Source: an uncultured Sphingomonas sp. (GTDB lineage: Bacteria; Pseudomonadota; Alphaproteobacteria; Sphingomonadales; Sphingomonadaceae). Taken from it: a stretch of DNA of 64,000 bases. The position numbers were made by a program, and so were the translations under genes. The stretch lies in NCBI RefSeq assembly GCF_946477935.1, contig NZ_CAMLAC010000002.1, positions 378-64,377 on the forward strand. The letters are read 5' to 3'. Numbering within the stretch: the first letter of the stretch is position 1; each line of letters begins with the position of its first letter. This document shows, piece after piece, positions 935 to 25,599 of this stretch. The notes below the pieces were generated by a model. It saw only the letters and a list, made by a program, of their open reading frames with translations, made no database searches and had not been told where the DNA came from.

Positions 935-1255
935 ATGAACAACGTCAACATCGCCGGCCGCGTCGCCAAAGACCCCGAGACACGCGGCACCGTCACCACC
1001 CTCATCGTCGCGACGGATCGCTTGAAGCTCAAGGACGGCAAGACCTATGTCGACGAGGTGACCGGCTATACCGCCAAGGATACCGAGTTCCACAGGGTGA
1101 CCTGCTTTAACGGGCTCGCGCGATCGGGTGCATCACGCAAGAAGGGCGACGTCGTCGCGATCACCGGAAGCCTCCATTATTCGAGCTGGGACGACCGCGA
1201 TGGTGTCACTCGCTACGGATGCGAGATCTGGGCCGACAAGATCGACTTCTTCTGA
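935..1255 (+). CDS. ssb: Single-stranded DNA-binding protein, OB-fold only
   Basis: MNNVNIAGRVAKDPE...TEFHRVTCFN...KKGDVVAITGSL...YGCEIWADKIDFF; AGAGGAG RBS before ATG 935; 106 aa with no acidic tail. Confidence 0.9.
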   Translation: MNNVNIAGRVAKDPETRGTVTTLIVATDRLKLKDGKTYVDEVTGYTAKDTEFHRVTCFNGLARSGASRKKGDVVAITGSLHYSSWDDRDGVTRYGCEIWADKIDFF

Positions 1256-1264
1256 GACGCGGCG

Positions 1265-1284
1265 GGCGGCGCCTTGGCGCCGCC
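1265..1284 (+). terminator. GC hairpin after ssb
   Basis: GGCGGCGCC-TT-GGCGCCGCC perfect 9-bp stem; no clear U-tract. Confidence 0.35.
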
Positions 1285-1316
1285 TCGTCACCACAGCGGA
1301 CCCGAGCTAGAGACCT

Positions 1317-1490
1317 TCAGCCGTGACGCGGCGGAACGACGAGCAGATCCGCTACGCTCTGTGCAAATCCCTGCGCCAGCAGCGCCTCTTCTCGCGTCAA
1401 TATGATCTCGTTCGCCATGCTCGCGTCGAGCAAATTCTTGAGCCGGGCCGCTAGTGCCAAGGCGGCTTCCTTGATCAATGCTTCATCCAT
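1317..1490 (-). CDS. Small hypothetical protein (57 aa)
   Basis: MDEALIKEAALALAARLKNLLDASMANEIILTREEALLAQGFAQSVADLLVVPPRHG*; protein-like composition; below the ORF-track cutoff. Confidence 0.35.
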   Translation of the reverse strand: MDEALIKEAALALAARLKNLLDASMANEIILTREEALLAQGFAQSVADLLVVPPRHG

Positions 1491-1604
1491 CTCGCGCCCC
1501 GCGTCGTTGATGCCGGTGCTTTACGGGCAGGCGCGGGACTCATGTCGCACTGCTACCCGTCGTCGTCAGGCCATAGCATGGTTCACGGCACGAGCAGACC
1601 CGCC

Positions 1605-2732
1605 CTATTCTCCTTCTGCGGGGAGCGGCGCTGCGAGCGGGGTCACCGCGGTCGCATAAACCCAGGCTCGTGCAAGCTGGCCGGAGAGCGGGTCTCGGAA
1701 CAGGACCTTGTGCCAACGGCCCTTTCTCTCTTCCACCGCAATCTCGGTATCCTGCGGCGCCTTCCACACGACGGCTCCGCTGCGCGACGGCGCATCTCGC
1801 AATGTCGCAGCCCGCGCCAGATAGCCGCGCTGATGCTTCGCCAGGAGGGCCGCTTCGGACTGGGCTGCGGCTTCGTGGTACCTGTGATGCTCTGCCTGCG
1901 CCCGATCGATCTTCTCGTGCAACGAGCTGAAGGCGGCCTTCTCATCAGGGCTCATCGTCTGCTGCTGCGGTATCAGCGCATAGGCGCCCAAAATAGTCAG
2001 AATGAAGCTGATGAAACCGACCAGGCCCATGCGTTGCAACTCCGGCAACGTGTTGGGACCAAGACCCTGGAAGAAGCTCTGGACGAGATCGAACAACGAG
2101 CCCTGCAGCCGGGCTGTCTCTTCATCCGTTTCCGCAGTGACGATCGCCGCAGCCACCTGCTGCATCTCGATCACGGTGCGCGCCGCGAACGCGGTCGCGG
2201 TTTCCCGCTCCTCGTCGCTGGCGCGCAGGGTTAGCGTATCGATCACGAGCATTCGCTCGGCGATCGCGCTGAAGGTCGTGAACCGCGGTAGCGCCTCGGC
2301 GATCACACGCCTGTAGGTCTCGCCAACACTGGCGGAAGCGATCGCCGATGCAACCAGCGACTGGCTCGCTCCGAACGCACGCACCGTATCGAGCACCGAC
2401 GAGGCCAGATGCCGCTGCTGGTCAAGCAACGACCTGTCCTGTCCGGCGAGCCGGCGCGCCGTTTCGGTCACCGACAGCGCCCAGGCATTGCTGGTCAGAT
2501 GCTTGAGGCTCTCGCGTTGTTTGCGATCCCGCTCAAGCGTGTCGAGGATTCCGCGATAAGGCGCGTCGAAATCAAATCCGCGCAGCATCTCGCTGGCGGT
2601 CTTCGCGTGTTTCATCGCGTCGGCGACTGCGCTGCCGCCGAGCGCATTGCGGTACAGGGCAGCGCGTTCGCGTTCCTCGCGAAGGAATCGGTCGGTGGCG
2701 CTCTCGGGCAGGCCAAAAGGGTTGGTCCTCAT
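1605..2732 (-). CDS. Hypothetical membrane-anchored protein with C-terminal bacterial SH3-like domain
   Basis: 375 aa; one hydrophobic segment (GLVGFISFILTILGAYALI), then a coiled coil and ATLRDAPSRSGAVV...EIAVEERKGRWHKV...RAWVY, typical of SH3b. Confidence 0.6.
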   Translation of the reverse strand: MRTNPFGLPESATDRFLREERERAALYRNALGGSAVADAMKHAKTASEMLRGFDFDAPYRGILDTLERDRKQRESLKHLTSNAWALSVTETARRLAGQDRSLLDQQRHLASSVLDTVRAFGASQSLVASAIASASVGETYRRVIAEALPRFTTFSAIAERMLVIDTLTLRASDEERETATAFAARTVIEMQQVAAAIVTAETDEETARLQGSLFDLVQSFFQGLGPNTLPELQRMGLVGFISFILTILGAYALIPQQQTMSPDEKAAFSSLHEKIDRAQAEHHRYHEAAAQSEAALLAKHQRGYLARAATLRDAPSRSGAVVWKAPQDTEIAVEERKGRWHKVLFRDPLSGQLARAWVYATAVTPLAAPLPAEGE

Positions 2733-2964
2733 GAAGGCAATCCTGTCAGATCGACACGCCCGGTGCGACCAACATTTCGAGAACCGACATTCACCATCAC
2801 CAGGGCTCGACGCATCCCACCCTGCGGGCGGGACCGGCGCTCTACTCGCCTGCGGCTCCCGGAGCCCCGTCTCCGTCGGGTCTCCGCCCTCCGGGTGACG
2901 ATCACCTTGCGGGTGCGTGGGGAGAGGTCAAGGAAAAAATCTCTCTCTCTGAATTCCTAGTTGT

Positions 2965-3144
2965 GACGTGCGGGGATCCGAGCCCGTCAAGGATGAGCGG
3001 TCCCCCCAATTTTCACGAACCCTCCGCTTCGCTCCGGGCACGAGAAAATCGGCTCCCCCGCTCCCCGCTTCGCGGCGTTAACCGGGGTCCGGCTGGCGCC
3101 GGCTTCCCGGTTAACGTCCCTGACCGGCACGACCACCGCACGTC
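2965..3144 (+). promoter_or_regulatory. Large nested stem-loop A upstream of the DUF2493 gene (Frpo/ssi-like candidate)
   Basis: GACGTGCGG(2965)/CCGCACGTC(3136-3144); GTCAAGGA(2986)/GTCCCTGAC(3116-3124); ATTTTC(3009)/GAAAAT(3044); CGTTAACCGGG(3076)/CCCGGTTAACG(3106-3116). Confidence 0.6.
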
Positions 3145-3189
3145 GATTGAAAAGCCTCATCGAATGGATGAGTTTCCAAGGAGGCTATC

Positions 3190-4167
3190 ATGCAGACCAG
3201 TTTCACCAACTTCGCCGACCTCGCCAGCCACATTGCCGCCGCACGCGAAAACGAGGACCTGACGCAGACCTACGAAGGCGCCTTCATCGAGCATAACGAA
3301 ATGGCGAAGCTCAGCATTGTCGAGGCGCCGGAAGCGCTGGACATGCCCGATCCCGAGCAGGTCCGAGCCGCCGTCGAGATGATGATGCAGACGATGTTCG
3401 ATGTGCTGCGCGACACGCGCATGGAGGCCTTCGCGACCGATCTCGCCTGGGGTTTCGCGAACAGCTTCCACGTGGTGGCGAAGCGGATCGAAGGCCGGGA
3501 GGATGACGCGGCCAAGAAGCTCGGCGACCTCGCCCGCGCCTACGACCCCTCCGAGATCTACGCGACCGAACTGGAGGACACGCAGCTCCTCTGCCAGACG
3601 CTGCAGGGGTGCCGGGAGGCGATGGAGTGCATGCGCGACCATGCCGCCGAAGTCTATCGCGTCGAGACCGGCAAGCCCTTCTCGCCGGTCCGGGGAAGCC
3701 GGGTGTCGAGCGCGCTCAACGCCTCGATGATCGATGCCCGCGACTATCTCGCCTCACGCGCCCGGGAACGCCGCGAACAGTTCGCGCCTGAGGGACCCGT
3801 GGTGGCCTTCTCCGGCGGTCAGGTTTGGGAAGACGGCGACCTGCTCTGGAAGGGCCTCGACAGCATCAAGGCGCGCATCCCCGAGATGATCCTCGCGACG
3901 ACCGCACAGGCCAAGGGGTGCGATGCCGCGGCGCACGCATGGGCCGCCTCGCGCGGCGTGAAGGTGATCCAGTTCCGGCTCGATCGCAGCCAGGGCAACC
4001 GGGCGGCGTTCGTGCGCAACGACCGCATCCTCAACCTCAAGCCGGTCGAAGCGGTCATCTGCGAGGGCTCGGGCATTCAGCAGAACCTCGCCCAGAAGCT
4101 GCGGCAGGCAGGTGTCCCGCTGCACATCGTCCGCCTCGCCCAGCAGCGCAGCCAGCGCGCCGCGTGA
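3190..4167 (+). CDS. DUF2493 (YspA-related SLOG) domain protein
   Basis: 325 aa; C-terminal VVAFSGG...ILATTAQAKGCDAAAHAWAASRGV...AAFVRNDRIL...EGSGIQQNL is the DUF2493/SLOG pattern; GGAGG RBS. Confidence 0.8.
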   Translation: MQTSFTNFADLASHIAAARENEDLTQTYEGAFIEHNEMAKLSIVEAPEALDMPDPEQVRAAVEMMMQTMFDVLRDTRMEAFATDLAWGFANSFHVVAKRIEGREDDAAKKLGDLARAYDPSEIYATELEDTQLLCQTLQGCREAMECMRDHAAEVYRVETGKPFSPVRGSRVSSALNASMIDARDYLASRARERREQFAPEGPVVAFSGGQVWEDGDLLWKGLDSIKARIPEMILATTAQAKGCDAAAHAWAASRGVKVIQFRLDRSQGNRAAFVRNDRILNLKPVEAVICEGSGIQQNLAQKLRQAGVPLHIVRLAQQRSQRAA

Positions 4168-4178
4168 TGCGCTTGTCC

Positions 4179-4218
4179 GAGAGGCTCCGGCGACCGCTGG
4201 GGCCTCTCTTCCTTTCTT
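4179..4218 (+). terminator. Probable intrinsic terminator
   Basis: GAGAGGCTCC...GGGGCCTCTC stem followed by TTCCTTTCTT. Confidence 0.5.
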
Positions 4219-4355
4219 GCGTCGTCGGGCGGCGCTCAGGGGCGTCGAGCCCCTTCGCGCTGCGCGATTGAGCGCGCGCGCGCACGCTCTGAAGCCCCGC
4301 CGGGGGCGGCAGAGGGGAGGGGGAGGGGCGGTTGCAGATCAGCAGGGAGGTCAAG

Positions 4356-4934
4356 ATGTCCGTCACGTTCCGCATCGCCACTGCCGCCGACGATCGCGAC
4401 GGCCCGACCGCCGCCATTACCACCTGTCAACTCGCCGCGTTTCGCACGTTTCTTCGCGAACAGGGCGAACGCTATGGCATCGTCCTCGCTGACCCCGATC
4501 CGGACGAACGCGGCTTCCTCCCCAATCATCTCGAAGCGAGGGTCTGCCCGGTGGCGCTGGCCACGATCGCCAGGCTGTTCGACTATGACGAGGCGGTCAT
4601 CACCGTGGTCGAGGAAGCCCAGTTCCGGCGCCGCCGCATCAGCGTCTATCCTGTCGACCAGGCCAGCACGCTAGCCATGGGCATCGCACTCACATCCGAC
4701 CTCGGTCACGAACTCGATCTCGCATCGAACAACGCTTTCGCGCTGCTCGAAAGCCTCGGCCTCCGACCGGACAGCGTCGGCGAAATTCCGGTGCATGCAG
4801 TGCTCGCCCGCCTCTCACATCCGGCCGTTCGCCGCCGCGCCATGGCGGAAGGCACCAGTACCTATCTCGATCGACTTGATCGGCTTCTGGCCACCGCCGA
4901 TCCCGATGATGCGCCGCGGTTGGAATGGGCATAG
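4356..4934 (+). CDS. Hypothetical leading-region protein (192 aa)
   Basis: GGGAGG RBS before ATG 4356; high-GC3 codon use; followed by a terminator. No family recognised. Confidence 0.75.
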   Translation: MSVTFRIATAADDRDGPTAAITTCQLAAFRTFLREQGERYGIVLADPDPDERGFLPNHLEARVCPVALATIARLFDYDEAVITVVEEAQFRRRRISVYPVDQASTLAMGIALTSDLGHELDLASNNAFALLESLGLRPDSVGEIPVHAVLARLSHPAVRRRAMAEGTSTYLDRLDRLLATADPDDAPRLEWA

Positions 4935-4961
4935 CCTCCGTCCAATCTACGCCACAGCGCA

Positions 4962-4995
4962 GGGCGCGTCGCTCCGGCGGCGCGCCCATTTTTTT
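4962..4995 (+). terminator. Intrinsic terminator
   Basis: GGGCGCGTCGC-TCCG-GCGGCGCGCCC followed by ATTTTTTT. Confidence 0.7.
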
Positions 4996-5547
4996 GCTTG
5001 CCGGACCCGAGATCCCGGTCGCAGCCGGCCCTCAATTGTGCGGCGGTGCTCGGTCGCTCTCGCTCACCGGCTGGCGAAGCAAAGCGTCGATCGCCCGCTG
5101 CGTATGGCTGGCAGCCGCGACCTCTCCCGCGGTCCCGAGATAGACCAGCGTCTGACGTAGCAGCGCCAGCGCCAGCGCGCGCGCGACGACCTGCTCTGAT
5201 GGGTTCGCATCCATGTCCCGATCCCGAGCGCGAAGGTGATCCCAGCGGCAGTCGGCGGAGCGCCCAGCCAACAACTCCCGCGCGCTAGGCGCGGGAGCCG
5301 GGGCTGGTAACACGTCGAGACATGCGCCTACGCTTTTAGTGCCGAGGCACCTGGACATATGCGCAGGCACCCCGGCGTGATCACTCACCCCGAGTTGCCG
5401 TTCTCGACGGGATTACCAGTCCCGGCGCCGCCCGTTTCGCAGCGCCCGAGCGGACTAACATGTGGCTGGACATCGAACCATAAATTTGTGGATCGAAGGC
5501 TCAGGCGACGGCCTGCCGAGGCCACCGGCCACGGCGACCTCGGAGAA

Positions 5548-6417
5548 CTAGTTCTCGCTCTTTGACGTAGTCTGGTTAAGCTTTTCCCGCAGTGCGAATG
5601 CGCGCAGCATCTCGTCGAAACCCATCATTATCGCCCGCCGCTGGGTACCTGGCCCACCTGCCGGGTCGTCTCCCTCCCAGATCACGGGAACCGCGCCCTC
5701 TGGGATCTCGAACCGCTGAAAAACAGCGGCGGCATAGTGGGCCATTTGTTTAAGCGCTGGAGTGTAGAATCCGAGCACTAGGGCCATTAGCCCGTCATGA
5801 GCTTTCCGGTAGTCAACAGCCAGTGCGGTTAGGTCGAGCGGGCCGGAGCCGAGGGTCAGCAGTTCGGTGCGGACCTTCTTGTTGACCCTGCTGCTGGCCG
5901 CAAGGGTCGCAGGGTAAAGCTGAAGGCCAATGCGGGCCGCCATTACCCCATCCGCCATGCGATCCGCATTGATCGGCACGAAGGAAATCGGCAGTTCGTG
6001 GTGCTGCGCGAAATTGCGCAGCTGACACAGGCAGCGATACGCGAAGCTCGTGTCGAACCAGTGGTTTGTCGCTGCCTCAAACGCCGCAGGCTCGACGCCC
6101 TGCTTGCCGAACTGGCCCAGCAGCCTGGTCTTCGACCGATCACGAAATGCGCTGGCTGCGCCCAGAAAATTGCCGATCCGGCGCTGCGCCTCGGCATTGG
6201 CATCCACACCTGCGGGGATCGTGATCATCGCGGTCGCCAATTGTCGCGACAAAGCCTCACCGATCTCGACCTCCGTGCGTTCGAAAGCCGCGTAATCTTC
6301 CGACAATGCAAGATAGTCGACCATGTACGGTCGCAGCAGTTCCACGACGCGCGTGTACTGCCGGAATTCGGACCAGATTGTCGCGTCGATCGGCCGGGCA
6401 TCGATCTTGAGGTCCAT
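5548..6417 (-). CDS. Hypothetical protein with HEPN-like R-x4-H motif
   Basis: ~289 aa from MDLKIDARP (start could be 6486); contains FAYRCLCQLRNFAQHHELPI (LRNFAQH encoded at 6001-6021). Confidence 0.6.
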   Translation of the reverse strand: MDLKIDARPIDATIWSEFRQYTRVVELLRPYMVDYLALSEDYAAFERTEVEIGEALSRQLATAMITIPAGVDANAEAQRRIGNFLGAASAFRDRSKTRLLGQFGKQGVEPAAFEAATNHWFDTSFAYRCLCQLRNFAQHHELPISFVPINADRMADGVMAARIGLQLYPATLAASSRVNKKVRTELLTLGSGPLDLTALAVDYRKAHDGLMALVLGFYTPALKQMAHYAAAVFQRFEIPEGAVPVIWEGDDPAGGPGTQRRAIMMGFDEMLRAFALREKLNQTTSKSEN

Positions 6418-6547
6418 CGCCCCGCCGGGCTTCGGGACATACCATCCAAACCGGCGGCGCCCGGGCAGATGGCCAACGTCCTTCATCCATCCACCCCCGC
6501 GGTCGCCCCCAATAAGAGGGTAAAATCTCTCACAGACTTCCAAGGAT

Positions 6548-6722
6548 GTCGTTGAGGGAGCCGCCGCGTCAAGGACGGCGGGGCCCCACCATTTTCTTCG
6601 GCGGATCGAGGCCGGTTCCCAGCCTTCGGCGACAGTGGCCGCCGAAGAAAATCGTGACCCCCACCGCCGCTGCGCGGCGCCGGCGTTGCCGGCGTCCCTG
6701 ACCCGGCGGCTCCCTCAACGAC
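6548..6722 (+). promoter_or_regulatory. Large nested stem-loop B upstream of the 74-aa gene (Frpo/ssi-like candidate)
   Basis: Perfect 19-bp IR GTCGTTGAGGGAGCCGCCG (6548-6566/6704-6722); GTCAAGGACG/CGTCCCTGAC (1 mismatch); perfect 14-bp IR ATTTTCTTCGGCGG (6591-6604/6639-6652). Confidence 0.65.
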
Positions 6723-6760
6723 GGCCATTCCCCTGTCATTCAAGACGACAGGAGGCTTCC

Positions 6761-6985
6761 ATGCAGACCATCTCGACCGCCGCCCACGCCGACGCCGCAA
6801 ACTACCTCGCCGCCCTCGCATTCGCAGAGCGCCGAGCACTTCACAGCTTCTTCGACCAGCACGTCATTGAGGAGGGGGACGGACGCTACGTCGCCATCGA
6901 CGAGGGCGACTATGATGCGCTGCCGATGACGCTCATCGACCGGGTCGTCCACACGGTTCCGGGACGCATGTCCGACGAATTCTGA
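6761..6985 (+). CDS. Small acidic hypothetical protein (74 aa)
   Basis: AGGAGG RBS, MQTISTAAHAD...RMSDEF*, 13 D/E vs 5 R and 0 K; followed by a terminator. Confidence 0.8.
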   Translation: MQTISTAAHADAANYLAALAFAERRALHSFFDQHVIEEGDGRYVAIDEGDYDALPMTLIDRVVHTVPGRMSDEF

Positions 6986-6991
6986 GGGTCG

Positions 6992-7020
6992 GGGAGGGGC
7001 TGCGGCCTCTCCCTTTTTTT
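6992..7020 (+). terminator. Intrinsic terminator
   Basis: GGGAGGGGC-TGCG-GCCTCTCCC followed by TTTTTTT. Confidence 0.75.
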
Positions 7021-7096
7021 GCCTGGAGATGAGCAGTCATGGGGGGCATCGAACCCCCCATGACCGCGCCGCGGCGATGCCGCGGCAGGTGCGGAT

Positions 7097-7315
7097 TCAG
7101 GCCGCCAATCGCTTCTCGACTTCCTCGATACCAAGTCGCTTGATGCGATCGGCGAGGTCCGCCAGTCGCTTGGCCTCGAGCTTGAGCAGGCCCGACTTCT
7201 CGACCGTCGCGATCGCCTGCTCGCGTTCGCGTTCCTCCAGCCTTCGTCGCCGCTCATCCAGCCGGCGCTCATCTTCCTCGAGCGCCAAACGCTCCTGTTC
7301 CAAGGTCTTTGCCAT
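7097..7315 (-). CDS. Small coiled-coil protein next to oriT (72 aa)
   Basis: MAKTLEQERLALEEDERRLDERRRRLEERE...GIEEVEKRLAA; heptad-like charged helix; position resembles oriT-flanking mobilisation/stability genes. Confidence 0.65.
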   Translation of the reverse strand: MAKTLEQERLALEEDERRLDERRRRLEEREREQAIATVEKSGLLKLEAKRLADLADRIKRLGIEEVEKRLAA

Positions 7316-7754
7316 AGTTGCCTCTTGTGAAGGCTAATCGGGCTATGAACCGGTCCGCTATATCGAGGACGGTCGCGGCTCGAAAGGCGTTTCAGGAAGC
7401 TTGGGCGGGTCGGGCTGCCGCCCGAACACGGCTCTATTCGCTAAGGTCCCCTGCCGACCCTGCAGGCCGGCAAGCGACCTAACCTCACGGAGCCAAGGCC
7501 GACGCCTTGTCTCCGCCCGTGCGGGTCACGATCCTCGCCTGCTCAATGGCGCCTTCGGCCGCCATTGTACCTGCGACGCCCGGAAACGGGGCCGTAGTCT
7601 TCGCCGACCCGCATGATTGGCAGGTCTTCCCGAGGTGCCATGCTGCCCCACCAGCACTTCCGCCTGGCGGCGGACCCATGCCCCGCCGGAACCGGTAGCG
7701 GGCACTTCCCGACCTCACTGGATCGAGACCGGGACCAAGGATCGGCCCCATAGG

Positions 7755-7787
7755 ATATGCACACCCTACGCACCTGAAGGTGCAGGG
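7755..7787 (-). other. oriT: oriT core with predicted nic site (nick on minus strand between 7761 and 7760)
   Basis: Minus strand reads CCCTGCACC-TTCA-GGTGCGTAGGGTGT^GCATAT, combining an R388-like GCACC-N4-GGTGC hairpin (R388 GCACCGAAAGGTGCGTATTGTCT^ATAG) with an F-like TGCGT.GGGTGT^G nick context; upstream of the RHH-T4CP-relaxase operon. Confidence 0.8.
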
Positions 7788-8006
7788 TTTTCGTTGCTGC
7801 ACAACGGCTTAGCGCGGAAGAGAAGGGGAGTACGCCGTAGTACGTTAACGGTGGAGCGTGAAAGGCGCAGATTTCCGCCATTCTCTGGTACTACGCCAGA
7901 CTACGGCGCAGGCGTATAATAAGACCAGCTTGTCGCTTCCCTGCCGCCGAGGTATAAGCGTCGCCATTCTTCAGTCCCCACCAGCCTCCCTGCTAGGAGG
8001 TTGGTC

Positions 8007-8297
8007 TTGGCTACCAATTACCGGCACTACAATATTCGCCTGGAGCGCTCCCAATGGGATCGCCTCAGCGCGATCGCGGCCGATCAGAAGCTGACCGTCG
8101 CCGACATCATCCGGTCGGCGCTCGACGTCTTCCTTTCCTCCTCCGATTTGCTGACCGCCAGCCAGCGGCGCCTGGCCCGCATCAGCGAGTTTCAGCAGCT
8201 CGCACTCGATGTCATCATCCGCGAGCAATACCCCGAATTGCGCGACCGTCTGGTGGCCGAAACCGACAAGCGCCTGGTGCAATATCATGGCGCGTGA
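8007..8297 (+). CDS. Ribbon-helix-helix relaxosome accessory protein (TrwA/TraY-like position)
   Basis: HYNIRLERSQWDRLSAIAADQKLTVADIIRSALD is an RHH pattern; AGGAGG RBS then TTG; overlaps the coupling-protein start. Confidence 0.75.
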   Translation: MATNYRHYNIRLERSQWDRLSAIAADQKLTVADIIRSALDVFLSSSDLLTASQRRLARISEFQQLALDVIIREQYPELRDRLVAETDKRLVQYHGA

Positions 8298-10590: not shown

Positions 10591-10593
10591 TCG

Positions 10594-13665: not shown

Positions 13666-13708
13666 AGCGAACAGCCGGCGCGGTGTCGGCAGATGAAGGA
13701 GACGACCG

Positions 13709-13909: not shown

Positions 13910-13937
13910 GGCGCGCCTGCGGAAAGGAGATAAAGCT

Positions 13938-14474: not shown

Positions 14475-14566
14475 ATGACAAAGATCGGTTCAGTCATGAG
14501 ACGCGGCAGCTAACCCCGCCCGCAGTAACCGAACATGGTGGCGCACTTGCCAGGACGCTGTCGCGG

Positions 14567-15991: not shown

Positions 15992-16287
15992 GAGATATCT
16001 CCGCGCCACAGCCGCTGATCCTGCCCGTGGACCTCGCAACGGACGACATCGTAGCCCATGCCGTATTCGCAGTCCGGCAGTACTAGCTCCTCCACGGCGA
16101 CGAGGAGCACGCGGGGTTTGGCGCGACGATTGTTGAAGTCGAGACATTGGCCCGGCGGTGCGCCGTAGTAGGGTACTGGGTCCTTCGGACTGTTCCAGTC
16201 CGACATCAAAACGAAGACTTGATCCACGAGCACCCCCTCTCGATGAAACTTGCCATAGTTCGTCGCGGTCGTTTCAACCGCCGTCAT
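15988..16287 (-). CDS. Small hypothetical protein (99 aa)
   Basis: Starts 8 bp after the nuclease C-terminal stop and overlaps the lipoprotein start by 4 bp, indicating translational coupling. Confidence 0.65.
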   Translation of the reverse strand: MTAVETTATNYGKFHREGVLVDQVFVLMSDWNSPKDPVPYYGAPPGQCLDFNNRRAKPRVLLVAVEELVLPDCEYGMGYDVVRCEVHGQDQRLWRGDIS

Positions 16288-16295
16288 TCAGACAA

Positions 16296-17309
16296 TCAGT
16301 CGACTGGCTTCGTGTAGGCGGGATCGAGCGCATCGTTTACAAGATGCGCAAGCCGGATACCCGCACGGCGCACGCGTTCCCCCGCCACGTCCTTGAACGC
16401 GTTTAGATAGGCGGCATCGACACGCACCTTCTTCGGCTGTCCGCCGTCTGGCAGGGCTGCGAACTCAGCAGAATATCGGCACGATCCGGCAGCCATCACG
16501 CAATATTGCACAGCTGGTCGCCTTGCTATCTCGTAAGACTCGGCGGCCCATTGCCATGGCGCGGTCGCGACGAACTGTTGCTTCTCGGCGATGCTCGTGT
16601 TCGCGTCGAGCGTGTCGACAGCGCGATAGGTGATCGTGCGCCGGCTCCAATTGGGCCGGTAATCTGTGCGTTCGCGCACGCGCTGAAAAATGCCGTTCTC
16701 GAGCAGGCAATTATCTCAGACAGCGTGAAAGCTGCCAGGTCTATAGGGATTGCCGGTCGAGCCGACACCGCATTTGCCAGAGAACGAAACGCTTATCGAG
16801 TTGCCGCCGACATCGTCCTCATAGGAAATATGCAGCGGCTGATGGATGTCTCCGACCCAATGGCCCAGCGCAAGCAGCGCTACGACTCGGTCTTGCTTCG
16901 ATCGTGATGCGTCCCCGAGAATGGCGATGTCGCGCCTGATCCCAGATAGGATGCATTTGAGCGGTTGCCCGGTCGTTTCGCTCAAAGGGCAAATGTCGTT
17001 GGCGATCGCAGGCAGCGAGCGCGCAACATTTATAAAATGGTCTTTCGGATTTCTACGCGGCCGCTCGTCTTCCTCCAGGCAGCCGACATTGAGCGAGGTG
17101 TAGGTCCGCGTTTCGCCGTGCGCTGTGATAGTCACGCCACCGGCGAACAGGTCCTTGACTGCCTGTCGGGTTGCCGGCGTGAAATTGCGATACGCGAGAT
17201 CACAGACGGTCAAATGACCGAATTCGCCCCATGCCTTGCTTTCCTGCGGCATCACGACGCCGCTTGCGGCCAATGCTGTCGTGAGCAACGCTAATGAAAA
17301 ACGCGCCAT
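16296..17309 (-). pseudogene. Secreted S1/P1-family nuclease with an in-frame TGA at the conserved Trp of HAVWD
   Basis: Signal peptide then WGEFGH; GHWVGDIHQPLH; SFHAV-TGA(16716-16718)-DNCLLE continues in the same frame to RRAGIRLAHLVNDAL; GGAGG RBS before ATG 17309. Confidence 0.85.
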
Positions 17310-17673
17310 GACCAGCCTCCTGGGTCTTGCCGACTCCTTTACCTCATCGTGCAATAAAGAACGTCTGATCGGACTTTGGCAAGTAGTCGAGTCCTGTGAC
17401 TGCTCCGCATTGCAGCTTTCGAGTTTCCGGTTCGCTCAGCGACAGACTAGAATCGCGGGCCCGATCAAATGCGCGGCCCAAGGGGAGCGGCATCACGGAT
17501 CACGGTTGCATGGAAGCGGCGAGCGCGTGAGGCTTCGCACATTGCAACGCCACACCCAAGTCGCTTGCCGCGCATGGGCCAGTCGTGGGTACGAGAACAT
17601 CTGGATCGACGGCGCCTCACGCGATCGGCTCATTCGTGAGGCACAGATCGCCGCGCGAATAAGAACTGGGCGA

Positions 17674-17727
17674 TGTCATCCATGACACTTTACCCGGAGG
17701 GTGGATGGTAAAGTGTCATTGATGACA
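17674..17727. repeat. 21-bp inverted repeat (1 mismatch, 12-bp spacer), each arm containing a TGTCAT-N2-ATGACA palindrome
   Basis: TGTCATCCATGACACTTTACC-CGGAGGGTGGAT-GGTAAAGTGTCATTGATGACA. Confidence 0.8.
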
Positions 17728-17770
17728 GCCTTGTGGACGCTGATAGCCTCGCGTGCGGGATTTGGCAGGG

Positions 17771-20700
17771 TCAGTGAAAATCATGGCTGCGGATGCGCAG
17801 CAACTCTTCTTCGTCGGGAACGGCGTTGAAGGGCGGATAGGCCAGCGTTCGCCCACGCGGTGGCCAGGTCGGGTCACGCGGATCGGGACCGGCGCCGTTC
17901 TTCGCACCATCACCGCGTCCCGGCGCAACAGTGAAATCCATCTTCCCGATCGATCGCAGCATGTCGTCATGGTCCGTGACGCGGTCGCAGATGATGTGGA
18001 TGACCTCACCCTCCTTCTGGACCCTGCCGCGCATGGCTATCATCGAGGCGGACATGACCTGGCGGCGATAAATCTCGAACCGGTCGGGCCACAGGATGCC
18101 GTTGGCGATGCCGGTCTCGTCTTCGATCGTGATGAACAGCACTCCTTTGGCGGAGCCTGGACGCTGGCGGACGAGGATCACGCCGGCGACCTCCACGTTG
18201 GGGCCGTCGCGTACCGAGGCGAGATCGGCGCATCGGGTAATACGCATCATATCGAGCTGGCCGCGAAGAAAGCTCATCGGGTGGCCGCGCAGCGATAGCT
18301 GGAGCGAGCGATAGTCCTCGACCACCTCGCGCCCATCGGTCATCGTGCGGAGCGGAACCGACGGCTCCAAGCCCTCGGGCGAGAACTTCTCCTCGCGCGC
18401 GTCGGCGGCAGCGAACAGCGGCAGCGGCGCTTCGCCGAGCCCTTTCACTTTCCACAGGCCCTGGCGGCGGTTTTCAGCGAGGCAGTGGAAGGCGTCGGCT
18501 TCAGCCAACCGCTCGATCGCGGCGCGCGGCACACCGGCGCGGCGCCACACCTCCTCAATGCTCTCGTAGGGCGCTGGCCCGCGTGCCGCTGCGATCGCGG
18601 CGCCATGGACGTTCGCGAGCCCGCGAACTTGCCGGAACCCGAGCCGTACCGCCATGTAGCGGCCGCCGGTTGGTTCCAGCGTACAGTCCCAATGGCTGCG
18701 ATTGATCGACACCGACCGTACTTCGACATCATGCTTGCGCGCGTCGTCGACGATCTGGGCGGGGGCATAGAAGCCCATTGGTTGCGCGTTGAGCAGCGCT
18801 GCGCAGAACACGTCGGGATGATGGTGCTTCATCCAGCACGACGCATAGGCGATCTTGGCGAAGCTGGCGGCATGGCTCTCGGGAAACCCGTACGAGCCGA
18901 ATCCCTCGATTTGCTTGAACGTCCTCTCAGCAAAGTCCTTCGGATAGCCGCGCGCCACCATCCCGCTGACCAACTTGTCATAGAAGTGGCTGACCCCGCC
19001 CGTGAGCTTGAAGGTGGCCATTGCGCGACGGAGCTGATCGGCCTCTTGGGGAGTGAACCCGGCGCCGACGATGGCGACCTTCATGGCCTGCTCTTGAAAG
19101 AGCGGCACGCCGAGAGTCTTCTCGAGGACGGCGCGCAGCTCGGGTTTAGGATATTCGGGCTTCTCTTTGCCCTCCCGGCGCCGGAGATAGGGGTGGACCA
19201 TGTCACCCTGGATCGGTCCCGGCCGCACGATCGCGACCTCGATGGTGAGATCGTAGAATTCCTTGGGCTTCATGCGTGGCAGCATGTTCATCTGCGCGCG
19301 GGACTCGATCTGGAAGACGCCGAGCGTGTCGGCCTTCTGGATCATCGCGTAGACATCAGGGTCATCGTCCTGCAGGTCGGCCATGCCGACCCTGATGCCC
19401 TTGTCCTGCTCCAAGAGGTTGAACGCGCGGTTAAGGCAACCGAGCATGCCCAAGCCCAGCACGTCGACTTTCATGAATTTGAGGGCGTCGATATCGTCCT
19501 TGTCCCACTCAATGATCTGGCGATCCTCCATCCGTGCAGGCTCGATCGGCACGAGATCGTCGAGCCGGTCCTGGGTCAGCACGAAACCGCCGGGGTGCTG
19601 CGACAGGTGTCGCGGGTGCCCGATCAGCTGGCGGGCGAGCTGAAGCGTCAGCTTCAGCCGGTGATCCCCGGCATTGAGGTTGAGGCTTTCGATCTGCTCG
19701 TCGCTGATCCCGTCGACCGACCAGCCCCACACGAGCCCGGTCAGCATTTTCGTTAGGTCGCGTGGCAGGCCCAGCGCCTTGCCGACCTCAGCGACTGCGC
19801 CGCGAGTGCGGTAGCGGGTTACCACGGCGGTGAGGGCGGAGCGGTGACGTCCGTAGGTCTCGTAAATCCATTGGATGATCTCTTCGCGTCGCTCATGTTC
19901 AAAATCGACGTCGATATCGGGCGGCTCCTTTCGCTCGCCGCTTACGAAGCGTTCGAACAGCAATTCGTGCTTGATGGGGTCGATCGACGTGATGCCGAGC
20001 AGAAAGCAGACGCAGCTGTTGGCCGCGCTTCCGCGACCCTGACACAAGATGCCGCGGCGGCGGCTCTCGCCGACGATCGAATGCACCGTCAGGAAGTAGG
20101 GCGCATAACCTAGCTGGTCGATCAACCTGAGCTCGTGGTCGATTTGGGAACGATATGCCTGCGGTACGCCCCCGGGGAACATGCGCGCTGCCGCCTCCTC
20201 GGTCAGCGCCGCCAGCGCCTCCTGCGCCGTCCGCCCAGCGATGACCTGCTCGTATGGATACTGATACTGGATCTCGCCAAGGTCGAATCGGCACTGCGCC
20301 GCAATGTCGGCGCTGGCCCGGACGGCATCCGGGAAGTCAGCGAACCGCCGCTCCATCTCGGCCGGAGACTTCAGGTTCCGGTCCATGTAGCGCTCGCGCC
20401 GGAACCCGAGCGCATCGATCGTCGTCCCTTCGCGGATGGCCGTCATCACGTCCTGCAAGGGCCGCGCCTCGCCGGTGTGATAGAGCACATCTCCGGTAGC
20501 GACGCTCCGCACGCCCGCGGCACGCGCCATCGCATCCAGCCCGTAGAGGCGTTCGGCATCATCGGGGCGGCGGCGCAGCGACAGCGCCAGATAGCCGCGA
20601 GATCCGAACACGGCACGCAGCTCATCGAGGCGAGCGGCTGTGGTCTCGTCCGGCATATCCGGCACGAGGATCGCCACCAGCCCGTCGGCATGCGCCGCGA

Positions 20701-21049
20701 CGTCGCTCCAGTCGAGGATGCAGAGGCCCTTGCCGCCACGCGCCTTGCCGACCGACAGGAGGCGCGTCAGTCGCGACCAGGCGGTGCGGTCGGTTGGATA
20801 AAGCAGCACCGCTCGGCCGTCGGTCAGATCAACCCGGGCGCCGGGCATCATGCGCACGCCGGTAGCCTTTTGCCCATCCCAGCCGCGGACCACGCCAGCG
20901 ACGCTACCCCGATCGGCCAGACCCAGCGTATGATGACCGAGCAGAGCGGCTGCAGAAAACAGTTCCTCGGGCGAGCTGCTGCCACGCAGGAACGAGAAGT
21001 GGCTCGTCACCTGGAGCTCGACGTAGATCGTTGCGGGCGCGTCCGTCAT
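17771..21049 (-). CDS. dnaE2: Error-prone DNA polymerase DnaE2 (ImuC)
   Basis: [18 protein letters not shown] start, [37 protein letters not shown]-terminal IRSHDFH; ATGA overlap with imuB; 1092 aa. Confidence 0.97.
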
Positions 21050-22905
21050 CCGAACAGCCCGTGCATGTACCAGCTGAGGTCGCCGGTCGGCGCCTCGACG
21101 CCGTCCCCGCGGCGAAACAGCCAGAAGCGCTCGCCACCCTCGGCCTCCACCCGGAAATAGTCCCGCACCGCCCACATCTCGCGCTCGTTGCGCCACCACT
21201 CGCCATGGATGCGTTCCGGGCCATCGCCGGCGACGACGCGATAGATGCGGCCGCGCCACGCGAACCGCCGCGGCGGGTGATCCGGCAACAGCGCCACGAC
21301 GTTGCTGAGCGCCTCGGGCCGACGCAGCAACCGCACCGGCCGCTTCCACGTCGGCCAGCCAGCCGGTGCCGCGAGCACGTCTGTCCGTCGGATAGCACGC
21401 TCAGGCACGTCGCTCTCTTCCGCGCCAACCCGGAACAACGCGGCCTCGCCGACGCGTCCGGCAAGCTGGTCGACCAGCGGCGAGAGGTCGGCGGGGAGAT
21501 CGTCGCCGACCAGCACCGCACCGAGCGACACCGGTGCAAGATCCTCGATCCTCGGGGCGGCAAGCGCCACCGCCTCGATACCCAGCCCCGGATCGATCCG
21601 TTCGACCCGCATCGCCAGCATACGCGTGAGATGCTTCGCGTCGCGCGTCGCCCGCGCGGTTCCAAGACCGATACGCTGCTCGTCGCCGTCGACGCGCAAG
21701 CAGGTCAGCACCGCGGCGCGAACACCGAGCCCCCGCGCTTGCAGCACCGCCACCATGTCGTCGACGAGATCGCCAATCACCTGGGTGATCGCCTCGGCTG
21801 TACCGATCGGTTCCAGCAGCCGGCGCATCACGCGCGGCTCTTCGAAGGGCACCACCGGAATGATCGGCTCGGCGACCATCCCGCGGGCCTGGTCGAGGCG
21901 AGTGACCGTCGCCATGCCGAGCCGGCGCGCGAGCGGACCGCGCGGCATCGAATAGAGGTCGGAAACCCGCTCCAGCCCGAATCTGGCGGCCGCATGCAAC
22001 GCCTCTGGCGTCAGCCGCAGCGAGGCAAGCGGCAGATCGGCGAGAATCTCCGTTTCTGAGCCAGGTGGCACGATAGTGGCCGGCTTGCCGCCGTAGCGCG
22101 CCAGCGCATGCGCTGCGCCCGGTGTGCCGGCGATCGCAATGCTGGCGGTGAAGCCGACACGCTGGAGGAAGCGCAGTAAGCGGCGGCAGAAGTGCGGCTC
22201 GCCACCGAACAGATGGGTGGTGCCGGTTAGATCGAGCCACAAGCCATCCGGTCCGGCGACACTGGCGGAAGGCGTCCAATGGCCGACCGCATGGAGCGCC
22301 AGCCGGTCGAGCCAAGCGCGATCCTTGTCGTGCTCAGCGTCGCGTACGTCGAGACCGGCGACGAGGGCGCGGGCATAGGCCGCAGCCATGCCGGGGCGCA
22401 GGCCTAGCTCGAGCGCAGCCGGGCAAGCAGCGGTCAACACGTCCTTCTGGCCGACCCGTTCGATCAATACGGTCGGGCGACCCCATATCCGATCAAGCGG
22501 GGCTGGCACAGCACGTCCGCGCCCCGGCGTACCTTCGTCTGGCGGCATCGCCTTGAACGGATGATCGGCTGGTTCGCTGCGGCGGCCAAGCATACGCCTG
22601 GGCGGTTGCTGATGCGCCGGCAGCGTTGCGATCGCTTGCTCGACCGAAGCGTGCGGCGATGCGCCATCGCGTGGCCATGCCGCGGAGCCATGATCGGCGA
22701 GCGCCCAGCGCGCGCCCGGCCGCCAGCCGCCGCCGCGTGGCACCGAGCAGGCGCCAGGATCGTCGTCGATCGGCGGTGCGAACCTCAAGCGTGTGGGGGC
22801 CGGCAGCGCCTCAGGCAGCTTGGCTGGCCGCTCCAACCGCCGCAGCCGCTCGATGGCGAGCTGGGGCAGGTAGAGCGAGGCGACCCTGGTCATCACACGC
22901 ATCAA
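21046..22905 (-). CDS. imuB: ImuB, Y-family polymerase-like protein
   Basis: [34 protein letters not shown]-terminal [10 protein letters not shown]...RDYFRVE...FWLFR; located between imuA and dnaE2. Confidence 0.93.
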
Positions 22906-23605
22906 GTTCGAGGGAGAAAGGATTGCCGTTGCGCTGTCTGACCAACTCGACCGACCAGCGTGGACGGCCGACGCCAGGATAAGGTAGCCTGGCTGACGAC
23001 ACGCAGCCGATCCGCCAGCGGGTCATCGCCGACGAGGGCTGACCGAGCGGACAACGGTCGCACGAGCGATGCCGGCGGTAGAGCAGCATCGGCGTCCCGC
23101 CATCCGATGCGGCAAGCTGGAGGCGGCGGGTCGCGGTCTGATCGGCCAACTTCACCTCGGCGACCACGCAGGCGAGCGAGCCGAATCGCAACGCATCCTC
23201 GGCCAGCGCCAGCACCTCGGCATCCTTGCCCGCTTCGGCGTGGAAAATGCGCTCTGGACCGAGCCCGACCTGATCGAGCCCCGGCGCATAAAGGTCGTAG
23301 CGGCTCAGTGCCCACAGCACCGTAAATCCTGGTTGTGAGGCGAACCTGGCGGCGATGCCGGCTGCAAATAGCGTGGCGGCCGCGTCGTCGTTCAGCGAGG
23401 CGGTGGCGGCAGCGATCTCATGGAGCCCGGCGCCGTCGAGCCCGCCGCCGGCAACCTTGCTATCGACCGCCTCCAGTCCAAACGCCAGTACCGGCCCGCG
23501 CTGGCTCTGGGCTTGCGCAAGCTGCGCGCGAAGCGCGGCTAGTTGATCGGCATCGGGCCGATCGGGGGACGACGAAGGTAGGAGCATCGGGCAACATCGA
23601 CTCAC
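22811..23605 (-). CDS. imuA: ImuA (RecA/SulA-like)
   Basis: GGGLDGAGLHEI, ALAEDALRFG, RRLQLAASDGG, RPRWSVELVRQRNG; alternative start at 23587. Confidence 0.92.
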   Translation of the reverse strand: MSRCCPMLLPSSSPDRPDADQLAALRAQLAQAQSQRGPVLAFGLEAVDSKVAGGGLDGAGLHEIAAATASLNDDAAATLFAAGIAARFASQPGFTVLWALSRYDLYAPGLDQVGLGPERIFHAEAGKDAEVLALAEDALRFGSLACVVAEVKLADQTATRRLQLAASDGGTPMLLYRRHRSCDRCPLGQPSSAMTRWRIGCVSSARLPYPGVGRPRWSVELVRQRNGNPFSLELDACDDQGRLALPAPARHRAAAAVGAASQAA

Positions 23606-23607
23606 TT

Positions 23608-23622
23608 GTTCCTTCTATGTTC
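23608..23622. promoter_or_regulatory. Alphaproteobacterial LexA (SOS) box upstream of imuA
   Basis: GTTC-CTTCTAT-GTTC, a perfect GTTC-N7-GTTC. Confidence 0.9.
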
Positions 23623-23691
23623 CGCCTACTCGTGGGGTTCGTCAAGCCGGATGATGAGTTATCCGTTTCTCGGACGTGAAGATGCAGTGGC

Positions 23692-24129
23692 TCACCCCGC
23701 CGGCGCCGCATCTCCGATGAGGCGTAGCGTCATCGGGTCGCGCTTGCCGCCAAACCAGCGGTCAAGCGCCGCGGCGATGAGCGCATTGGGACGAACTGCC
23801 TCGAACAGGGTCAGCGACGAGCGCAGCTTCGTGGCATCGATGTCGCCGAATACAGCCTCGGCATTGCTCGTCGCGAGATCCTGCAGGGCGGCGACGCATT
23901 CGAGATAGCGTGGACCCAATACGGCGTGGTCGAGATAGGCGCGTGCCTCTTCGAGCGACCGGACGGCGAAATGCTGCGCGGTCGAACTGCGCCCGAGCCC
24001 GGTGAACTGTGGGAAGACATACCACATCCAGTGCGAGCGCTTGGCCCCACGCCGGATTTCCGCGAGCGCGGTCTTGTAGTTGAGGGTCTGAGCCTCGACG
24101 AAACGATCGAGCGAGTTAACGTCCGGCAT
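23692..24129 (-). CDS. DUF1810-family protein
   Basis: LDRFVEAQ...ALAEIRRGAKRSHWMWYVFPQ..GLGRS...EARAYLDHAVLGPR...KLRSSLTLF. Confidence 0.9.
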   Translation of the reverse strand: MPDVNSLDRFVEAQTLNYKTALAEIRRGAKRSHWMWYVFPQFTGLGRSSTAQHFAVRSLEEARAYLDHAVLGPRYLECVAALQDLATSNAEAVFGDIDATKLRSSLTLFEAVRPNALIAAALDRWFGGKRDPMTLRLIGDAAPAG

Positions 24130-24130
24130 G

Positions 24131-24739
24131 TCAGAGCAGCGCCGGTTCTGCGGCCGGGAACACGCGCGTGACCGGCAAACTGCCTTTCGGTAACGCCCGC
24201 AGCACATCCTTCGGCGGCACCGACGGATCAAGCCAGTCAGCCCATTGATCGCGGGTCAGCGGGATGATCTGACGATGATGATAGGGCGCGACATCTTCAC
24301 CCGGCTCCATGGTCAGCATGGTCCAAGCTTCGCCGGATGGCACCGCCCGCCAGATGCCCGCGATGCAGAACCAGTCGTGTCCCTTCAGCGTGAACAGCCA
24401 CTTTGTCTTGCGCTTCTGACCTGGCTGCGGTTCGGTAAACTCATAGAAGCCATCGGCCAGGATCAAGCAACGCCCGGAGGCAAATTCGCGACCTTCGCTG
24501 CGGTAGTTGTAGACGGGCCTGCCGCCTTGCCCTGGCCAGCTCCATCTACGACTGACCAGCTCGCCCACGCCACGTTCGCCCTCGACACCGCGTACTATCG
24601 GGGCTGAATCGCTTATCTTGATATCCTCTCGAGCTGCCACGTTGGGCGTGCCTTCGGGGGTCTTGATCTTGATCTTGAGGTCTTCAAAGTCTTCCATGAT
24701 CGAGGCGATGTCCACCTCCAGCCGATAGTCATTGCACAC
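24131..24739 (-). CDS. SOS response-associated peptidase (SRAP/YedK/HMCES family), catalytic
   Basis: GTG start giving MCNDY (Cys2), RCLILADGFYEF (Glu), PYHHRQ (His). Confidence 0.9.
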   Translation of the reverse strand: MCNDYRLEVDIASIMEDFEDLKIKIKTPEGTPNVAAREDIKISDSAPIVRGVEGERGVGELVSRRWSWPGQGGRPVYNYRSEGREFASGRCLILADGFYEFTEPQPGQKRKTKWLFTLKGHDWFCIAGIWRAVPSGEAWTMLTMEPGEDVAPYHHRQIIPLTRDQWADWLDPSVPPKDVLRALPKGSLPVTRVFPAAEPALL

Positions 24740-24769
24740 ACGCCCCAGCCTTTCTTGCGACCTGCCGTC

Positions 24770-24784
24770 GTTCCCACTATGTTC
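24770..24784. promoter_or_regulatory. LexA box between the divergent SRAP genes
   Basis: GTTC-CCACTAT-GTTC, a perfect GTTC-N7-GTTC. Confidence 0.9.
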
Positions 24785-24791
24785 CTGCGGG

Positions 24792-25313
24792 ATGGAGTCG
24801 CCTATACCATTTGATACCGACGCCCCGCCGGGGGGCAGACGTGCCATCATCAGGCGAAATCCGGATGATGCCAGCGAAATCGAGATGGTCGAGGCGGCCT
24901 GGGGGTCCAACCCGCGGTTCAGTGATGGCGCCTCGTTGCGGTTCGTTCGCTCGGAAGGCCGCCCATTCCCGAACAACCGTTGCCTGATTCCAGCCAGCGA
25001 ATTCCACATGCGCGTGGGAGACAACCGCTACCGCGCGACTCTCGACAGCGGCAACTTCTTCTATCTTGCCGCCATCTGGGAGCCGGCAATTGGCGGGTGG
25101 CCGCTCAGCTTCCGTGTCATCACAGTCGCGGCGAACGCTGAGGTTGCCCGCTACCAGGACCGGCATGGCGCGATCATCGAACGACGGCACCGGATGCAGT
25201 GGCTCGACGCTACCGTTCCGGAGATCGACCTGCTGCAGACGCCGCCAGAGCGGACCTTTCTCGTCGAGCGGCTCGTAGGGGGCGGGACCAGCCAAGCGGT
25301 GCTCGCCCTGTGA
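24792..25313 (+). CDS. SRAP-family paralog lacking the catalytic triad
   Basis: RSEGRPFPNNRCLIPASEFHMR and VARYQDRH align with the neighbouring SRAP but lack Cys2, Glu and His. Confidence 0.75.
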   Translation: MESPIPFDTDAPPGGRRAIIRRNPDDASEIEMVEAAWGSNPRFSDGASLRFVRSEGRPFPNNRCLIPASEFHMRVGDNRYRATLDSGNFFYLAAIWEPAIGGWPLSFRVITVAANAEVARYQDRHGAIIERRHRMQWLDATVPEIDLLQTPPERTFLVERLVGGGTSQAVLAL

Positions 25314-25338
25314 CCACCGAGAAACAAGGAGCAGCAGC

Positions 25339-25599
25339 ATGGACGTGCTAGCGGACGCAGCAAGTTGGCTGACCCAAGAGGCCGACGAGATCCTACTCGA
25401 ATATCCTCGAACATCGCCTGCGGACCTCGCCACGTCGTTCGAGCGGACGATAGCCAGCTATGACGGCGATCGGGACATGGCTGTGGCCATCATTGCCGAG
25501 CTGAGGCACCGCGCCGGCGCGGGCGTACGCTTTTGGCCTGGCCAGCCCTCCGAGCCGGAGGCGGCCGATGCAATTACGGGCGACGACATACCGTGGTGA
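25339..25599 (+). CDS. Small acidic protein ending GDDIPW (86 aa)
   Basis: AAGGAG RBS; stop overlaps the next start (GTGA). Confidence 0.7.
   Translation: MDVLADAASWLTQEADEILLEYPRTSPADLATSFERTIASYDGDRDMAVAIIAELRHRAGAGVRFWPGQPSEPEAADAITGDDIPW

Follow-up and report, generated by a model that had tools for sequence, protein, structure and literature searches.

A small acidic protein of 86 amino acids, encoded at 25339-25599 of the DNA analysed here, ends in the peptide AITGDDIPW and thus carries at its C terminus a tip of the type found in SSB, the protein that binds single-stranded DNA. The window, that is the whole stretch of 64,000 nucleotides from an uncultured Sphingomonas sp., spans positions 378-64377 of contig C2 of a 3.9-Mb sphingomonad assembly and has a high GC content of 63%. 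The tip is conserved among homologs, the gene is linked to an SOS island with genes for SRAP proteins, and we give about an even chance to the view that the protein is induced in the SOS response and serves the SRAP/translesion module as an adaptor, docking by means of its SSB-type tip. This view is based on the layout of an SSB tail in combination with the company of functions for lesions in single-stranded DNA (SRAP, AlkB-like proteins, ImuABC and UmuDC). An earlier note on this DNA had seen the tip, the SOS cassette and a tail-less plasmid SSB as parts of one story; the conservation of the tip and the connection to the SOS response stood, but the link to the tail-less SSB did not.

The small protein and its C-terminal tip

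The gene and the predicted parts of its product are as follows:

25339-25599, plus strand: gene of the 86-aa acidic protein, with ribosome-binding site; three close and 59 remote homolog clusters
25345-25521, plus strand: predicted three-helix bundle, residues 3-61, with helices 3-21, 27-40 and 45-61 (AlphaFold2, alignment)
25522-25572, plus strand: predicted disordered linker rich in Pro, Gly and Glu, residues 62-78 (AlphaFold2 pLDDT)
25573-25596, plus strand: C-terminal tip I-T-G-D-D-I-P-W, residues 79-86 (position-wise counts, synonymous codon variation)

The open reading frame is preceded by a ribosome-binding site (AAGGAG, 8 nt upstream), and its product has 17 acidic versus six basic residues and a pI of 4.07, in agreement with the earlier description of an acidic protein ending in GDDIPW. 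AlphaFold2 modelled residues 11-60 with a pLDDT of 88-96. For residues 71-86 the values are 48-52, with those of residues 72-79 below 50, and residues 62-86 are predicted to be disordered. The N-terminal domain contains the conserved core of the family, …EADE.L.E.P…LA..ER….YDG.PE.A..I.AELRRRAxAGVRFWP in the alignment.

Comparison with Pfam, NCBIfam, PHROG, PADLOC, PDB-sequence profiles and, by Foldseek, the PDB gave no convincing match (best Foldseek E=3); a PADLOC match to PycC (E=0.006, 14 bits) was judged spurious. A word-indexed search returned only three close relatives, the closest named homolog coming from a Novosphingobium metagenome-assembled genome, and a HMMER scan of 1.8 billion representatives yielded 59 family clusters. 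Members are present in six of 401 Sphingomonadaceae genomes. In 400 other Alphaproteobacteria the family profile found no match; scoring was limited to the best candidates from a permissive first pass, so that weak members were possibly missed. Judged by these searches, the family is rare, undescribed and, among the sampled genomes, confined to Sphingomonadaceae. In the passages searched, the survey of SRAP neighbourhoods by Aravind et al. (PMC3765255) does not mention it, and a literature search on DDIPW found nothing relevant.

The earlier note had made its reading depend on whether homologs keep the terminal motif, and they do. Twenty-one members at 30-95% identity share the consensus Φ-[T/I]-D-D-[D/E]-I-P-W-COOH (IPW-type tip peptide …EAADAITDDDIPW), with D in 17 and 20 of the 21 at the two Asp positions, E or D in 20, I in 19, P in 20 and an aromatic residue in 20. 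The last residue is Trp in 20 members, Ser in one and Phe, the terminal residue of SSB-Ct, in none. In 20 of 21 the stop codon follows directly after the Trp; the exception is member P0033, in which the motif is internal. This conservation is found despite linkers of 12-33 aa that are disordered and have no conserved columns across the 21 members. Tails are degenerate or frameshifted in three loci with eroded operons (L020, L022 and L025).

The codons of the tip vary synonymously (Pro CCG/CCA/CCT/CCC, Ile ATA/ATC/ATT, and likewise those for D and E), as does the stop codon (TGA/TAA/TAG). Since, in addition, loci without an overlapping downstream gene conserve the tip just as well, selection acts on the peptide. 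Conservation of P-W-stop as a by-product of the overlapping downstream start (GTGGTGA / ATGGTGA) was considered and rejected on the same two observations. Neither is the tip a chance match, to judge from the whole genome: among the 41,769 stop-to-stop frames with a length of 50 aa or more, only four end in [DE][DE][IVLM]P[FWY], namely two canonical SSBs (…DDLDDDVPF), the 86-aa protein and one prophage protein (…NITDEEVPF).

This last protein lies outside the window on contig C101 (10098-11024, minus strand), comprises 224 aa and ends in …SAFDNITDEEVPF. Besides the 86-aa protein, it is the one frame in the genome that has an SSB-type tip without being an SSB. It shares with the small family the pattern IT-acidic-acidic-acidic-Φ-P-aromatic and has no Pfam or PHROG match; an integrase and a DNA methyltransferase are encoded nearby.

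Like SSB-Ct of Escherichia coli (…MDFDDDIPF) and of the sphingomonad's own SSB (…DDLDDDVPF), the family tip has, strictly at the C terminus, a hydrophobic residue, an acidic triplet, Ile/Val, Pro and an aromatic residue with a free carboxylate. In SSB and in the 86-aa protein alike, a low-complexity disordered linker of variable length precedes the tip. The differences are in the carrier, which is a predicted three-helix bundle and not an OB-fold, in the terminal Trp instead of Phe, in the predicted induction by the SOS response and in the confinement to SRAP islands. Portable SSB-type tips are documented for prophage DUF669 proteins ending in DDDIPF (PMC13687109), which resemble the 86-aa protein in having such a tip on an unrelated fold. 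However, DUF669 proteins act in phage or prophage replication and themselves bind single-stranded DNA, whereas the 86-aa protein is a predicted LexA-regulon member of a translesion/SRAP island and gives no sign of DNA binding. Mimicry of the SSB tip by a short motif was known already; what is new is the small family and the Trp tip in a bacterial SOS/SRAP context. This would extend the portable SSB tips from phage replication proteins to the bacterial SOS regulon.

The same three-helix core carries a different tip, …[F/L/Y]WWQ[R/K][M/L/I/W], in a sister subfamily. One small scaffold would thereby have two alternative, putative C-terminal docking motifs. Further members of the family are short and have no tip.

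The SOS island and its SRAP genes

The 86-aa gene lies in an island with the following features:

17771-21349, minus strand: dnaE2, error-prone DNA polymerase in the plasmid annotation
21046-22905, minus strand: imuB, DUF6504 in the plasmid annotation
22811-23605, minus strand: imuA, NCBIfam ImuA match and ImuA in the plasmid annotation
24131-24739, minus strand: canonical SRAP of 202 aa, GTG start at 24739, beginning with M-C-N-D-Y; Pfam SRAP 2.1e-20, profile positions 1-196
24770-24784, no strand: LexA box GTTCCCACTATGTTC, a perfect alphaproteobacterial GTTC-N7-GTTC, between the two SRAP genes in their divergent promoter
24792-25313, plus strand: SRAP paralog of 173 aa, predicted to be dead; Pfam SRAP 1.3e-11, profile positions 54-189 only
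25596-26030, plus strand: downstream gene of 144 aa, whose GTG start overlaps the stop of the 86-aa gene (GTGGTGA)

The SOS mutagenesis cassette dnaE2/imuB/imuA occupies 17771-23605 on the minus strand and has its own LexA box at 23608-23622. Only three GTTC-N7-GTTC boxes are present in the window, two of them inside the SOS island. The position of the small gene behind a LexA-boxed gene, as claimed before, is borne out: the box at 24770-24784 is located just upstream of the SRAP-like gene that precedes it. Related loci were gathered from the MSRLWDTPEFW subfamily of the small family. LexA boxes are found upstream of the gene or operon in 17 of 20 distinct loci (all but L032, L037 and L039), nine syntenic loci carrying the equivalent of the 24770-24784 box. 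In stand-alone genes the distance from the box to the start is 55-90 nt. The box of L016 lies about 250 nt upstream. Together with SRAP, imuABC or umuDC neighbours, these boxes uphold the proposed tie of the small gene to a SOS/translesion cassette, and the small gene is probably LexA-regulated.

The canonical SRAP (PF02586) contains all catalytic residues, Cys2 (MCN…), the Glu of GFYE and the His of YHHR. Its paralog lacks the Cys2 segment at the N terminus and has Met in place of Glu (EFHM) and Gln in place of His (YQDR), which suggests a SRAP-fold pseudo-enzyme that is catalytically dead; the plasmid annotation calls it 'SRAP family protein'. The dead paralogs of the related loci show the same features: no N-terminal Cys2 segment, Glu replaced by Met or Leu and His by Gln.

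SRAP proteins (SRAP/YedK/HMCES, PF02586) are the constant genomic partners of the IPW proteins. SRAP genes lie within about 2 kb in all ten IPW-tipped loci with enough flanking sequence, usually as a Cys2 SRAP plus dead paralog. In six of these loci the Cys2 SRAP is followed divergently by the LexA box, the dead SRAP, the small gene and one further gene, for an AlkB-like oxygenase or a different product, and the group adjoins imuA-imuB-dnaE2. Four deeply diverged loci (L027, L028, L030 and L032) have the same cast in other gene orders. In L027, umuDC is followed divergently by a Zn-ribbon protein, the small gene, a 128-aa gene, the dead SRAP and the Cys2 SRAP; in L032 the small gene overlaps the dead SRAP; L028 and L030 have a Cys2 SRAP each, and L030 also a dead-SRAP remnant. 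No SRAP gene was found within 5 kb of WWQ-tipped genes in any of four informative loci. WWQ-tipped genes that stand alone, each with its own LexA box, are:

L014, 9811-10287, minus strand
L015, 9689-10033, minus strand
L033, 5001-5345
L038, 5001-5345

Homologs of the dead SRAP form 598 clusters, and those listed are 125-192 aa long, mostly 170-180. A Rosetta-stone fusion of SRAP with the small domain was looked for and found in none of the best 120 of these homologs. Homolog P0043 is a deletion fusion only, in which the N terminus of a dead SRAP is joined to the small protein.

The 144-aa protein downstream of the small gene has a signal-peptide-like N terminus and a weak nuclease-like match (PHROG endonuclease, E=0.007). 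In four related islands it is replaced by an AlkB-like 2OG-Fe(II) oxygenase (PF13532) that is translationally coupled to the small gene:

L013, 10224-10814: AlkB-like gene
L019, 7306-7914: AlkB-like gene
L021, 7312-7926: AlkB-like gene
L023, 7318-7920: AlkB-like gene

Several neighbours were seen in passing. Just downstream of the SOS island, the window encodes a phasin-like protein (26238-26705; NCBIfam PhaP6, E=2e-17, below cut-off) that has a homolog in the same island of L013. A conserved protein of about 105 aa, Zn-ribbon-like with four Cys, opens the LexA-boxed operon that holds the IPW protein and SRAP genes in L027 (4683-5000) and L030 (4471-4794); it recalls the Zn-ribbon proteins of SRAP-Ku neighbourhoods described by Aravind et al. 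(PMC3765255). In L029 (4236-4674) the IPW gene is followed 17 nt later by an apparent tandem paralog of the same family, after which the contig ends, and conjugation-type genes adjoin (Toprim, SLT, Peptidase_S26). The gene of a protein of about 150 aa, without family match and ending in …ILAEMPF, directly follows a LexA box and lies upstream of a WWQRI-tipped member (L008 1770-2279, minus strand, the same as L014 10134-10643, minus strand).

Candidate partners of the tip

If the 86-aa protein is an adaptor, it would be made after DNA damage together with the SRAP that traps abasic sites covalently and with the catalytically dead SRAP paralog. Its tip would plug into a pocket of the type that binds SSB tips, carried by SRAP itself or else by some polymerase or repair factor of the module, and a SRAP-held lesion on single-stranded DNA would be tethered to that partner. 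Both the use of an SSB-type pocket and the protein that bears it are matters that we infer. We lean towards SRAP or another protein of the module as partner, rather than the general SSB interactome of the host, because the type of tip co-varies with the presence of SRAP while the core is common to members without SRAP.

SRAP/HMCES proteins shield abasic sites in single-stranded DNA, and we know of no account of how bacterial SRAPs reach SSB-coated DNA or coordinate with translesion polymerases. A damage-induced partner with an SSB-like docking peptide, usually encoded beside a live and a dead SRAP, offers a concrete hypothesis for the hand-off from SRAP to translesion synthesis. In HMCES the C-terminal tail is disordered and contains a short docking motif, the PIP box for PCNA. 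This is a eukaryotic analogy for a docking tail on SRAP; here, the tail would come from a separate polypeptide that is not a SRAP, and one of the SRAP partners is without Cys2, Glu and His. Our literature search found no paper that links YedK/SRAP with SSB. Recruitment of a translesion polymerase by SSB-Ct is reported in a preprint (bioRxiv 10.1101/2020.03.03.975086).

Several findings weigh against an adaptor that docks in this way. The invariant Trp, present in 20 of 21 tips whereas the tips of the host SSBs and the cited SSB-Ct peptides end in Phe, argues for a pocket that differs, in its tuning at least, from the classical pockets for SSB tips, and it may not be a canonical one. About two-thirds of the family clusters have no IPW tip but are short or end in other tails or the WWQR tip. 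The SRAP-linked loci are partly kin, so that the contrast of ten loci versus none rests on perhaps three to five independent lineages. Among 19 Sphingomonadaceae genomes with a dead SRAP, 17 are without the small gene and only two have both; the dependence between the small gene and the dead SRAP is, in these genomes, one-way. An AlphaFold model, built on a block-diagonal alignment, of dead SRAP and small protein as joined by a natural in-frame read-through (L021, TAA read as Gln) folded the SRAP half too poorly (pLDDT 40-70, pTM 0.40) to bear on the question either way. Its tip reached a pLDDT of 68-79, but this was a different ortholog and contacts were not visible.

The same Trp could mean that the likeness to SSB is convergent. 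The IPW peptide would then be a private ligand of SRAP or dead SRAP, or fold back on the core of its own protein, serving for instance as an acidic pseudo-DNA plug by which SRAP cross-linking is regulated, and no SSB-type pocket would be involved. The co-variation of tip type with SRAP is consistent with this, and Aravind et al. (PMC3765255) noted a conserved SRAP pocket to which other proteins could bind. However, all positions other than the last match the SSB tip, the motif is strictly C-terminal after a disordered linker, and elsewhere in the genome it marks SSBs. We therefore regard convergence as unlikely, although it is the strongest of the competing explanations.

A more specific proposal goes further than the adaptor reading in naming bacterial SRAP, the HMCES homologue, as itself a client of SSB-type tips. 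The family would be a modular SOS adaptor whose common three-helix core sits on one fixed target and whose tip sets the effector. The SRAP/dead-SRAP pair would be recruited by the …DD(D/E)IPW tip, a 'surrogate SSB tail' induced by damage through which abasic-site shielding passes to the translesion machinery, and something else by the …WWQ(R/K)(M/L) tip. It is tempting to speculate along these lines, but in this full form the proposal is only about as probable as convergence.

With five of six tip residues identical to DDDIPF of E. coli, SOS control and a small, acidic protein family, one may also think of a decoy. A free tip would titrate the pockets of SSB-interacting proteins (ExoI, RecQ, PriA, chi, RecO and others) during the SOS response and so dampen nuclease activity and restart, without any tethering. 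A pure decoy could do without a conserved folded domain, but no part of the family is better conserved than the three-helix core, and targets that are universal in the host give no reason why the IPW tip should be restricted to SRAP-linked members. A decoy is, in our estimate, improbable, and somewhat more so than convergence.

SOS-induced inhibitors of cell division are typically small and lineage-specific, and the two tips have some resemblance to the C-terminal peptide of FtsZ: …DDEIPW and …P-x-F-W-W-Q-R-M could imitate parts of …MDIPRFLHRQ and block FtsZ anchoring. FtsZ of the same genome ends in …EPMDIPRFLHRQNNQ, sharing D-I-P with the first type of tip and P-x-F-Φ with the second. But the matches are short and out of register, with Trp at the position of the FtsZ Arg. 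The F-L pair of the D-I-P-x-F-L core is absent from the IPW tips, which have only D/E-I-P in common with it, and several WWQ tips have no Pro. The tight linkage to SRAP and polymerase genes points to DNA transactions and not to division, and an FtsZ mimic is very unlikely.

The tail-less plasmid SSB

The second feature of interest in the window is:

935-1255, plus strand: tail-less SSB of 106 aa, OB-fold only (Pfam PF00436), in a MOBF/MPF_F conjugative-plasmid backbone

Its gene is preceded by GAGGAG. PF00436 (E=2e-16) covers residues 1-105 of 106 and profile positions 1-103 of 104, and TIGR00621 scores 55.2 bits against a cut-off of 53.95, as expected of an OB-fold domain that binds single-stranded DNA. 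The protein ends in …EIWADKIDFF, one residue past the domain, and reading on in frame through the stop reveals no encoded tail. The observation that this SSB stops after its OB-fold without an acidic tail was therefore correct. The disordered linker and acidic tip (…DDD[IV]PF) are missing here and in at least 40 ortholog clusters.

Almost all orthologs at 60-92% identity have a length of 105-111 aa and end in IDFF, a sister clade (about 55% identity) has a different short tail, …DAP(D/P/E)ID(E/D), and in this comparison a DDDVPF tip occurs in the most distant match only. From this distribution, tail loss is an old and stable trait throughout this clade of SSBs from sphingomonad conjugative plasmids. 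Plasmid p1 of Sphingomonas morindae is annotated with the same 321-nt gene. Over its first 14 kb, the window matches MOBF/MPF_F conjugative plasmids from Sphingomonas, Sphingobium and Novosphingobium, the shared backbone including the relaxase, the coupling protein, DUF2493 and an SSB of this type. The host retains a normal tailed SSB, and the tail-less protein presumably just coats the transferred single-stranded DNA. In this it is comparable to tail-less paralogs such as SsbB of Bacillus subtilis, as an accessory SSB of a mobile element with only the OB-fold. SSBs from the leading region of F-type plasmids keep the tail, whereas the whole sphingomonad plasmid clade does without. The tail is generally regarded as the hub of SSB for protein interactions; apparently, an entire clade of conjugative-plasmid SSBs works without it.

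The presence of a tail-less SSB and a small protein with an SSB-like tip on one 64-kb stretch had led to the suggestion that the latter supplies the missing tail in trans or acts in conjugative transfer. Both features are real, but the two do not occur together elsewhere. A relative of the window SSB is found on 154 plasmids in PLSDB, and a tblastn search of its 72,556 plasmids with two divergent family members as queries found no homolog of the 86-aa protein. An 82%-identical SSB is found together with the same dnaE2-imuB-imuA-DUF1810-SRAP/SRAP island on three plasmids, of which two are from S. paucimobilis and one is from S. cloacae; in the S. paucimobilis plasmid inspected, homology ends inside the dead SRAP gene, and the family profile detects no remnant of the 86-aa gene at the locus. 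Conversely, the four other sampled genomes with the 86-aa protein have canonical SSBs of tailed length only, at 32-37% identity to the window SSB. In the window itself the two genes are 24 kb apart and belong to different modules, the transfer backbone and the LexA-controlled accessory island. Because PLSDB has no homolog despite 154 SSB plasmids, because an island plasmid has no such gene and because four genomes have canonical SSBs only, a tail in trans is not supported, and we consider it extremely improbable. As far as these comparisons reach, the tail-less SSB and the 86-aa protein are two unrelated features with no detectable connection.

The tail of the sister clade of the plasmid SSB deserves mention in its own right. 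In its fuller form, …FL(S/T)(R/K)G…(D/E)AP(D/P/E)ID(E/D), it is conserved and replaces DDD[IV]PF in homologs P0111-P0174 and in the same genome on contig C10 (L004, about 1500-1880); it may be a different docking tip.

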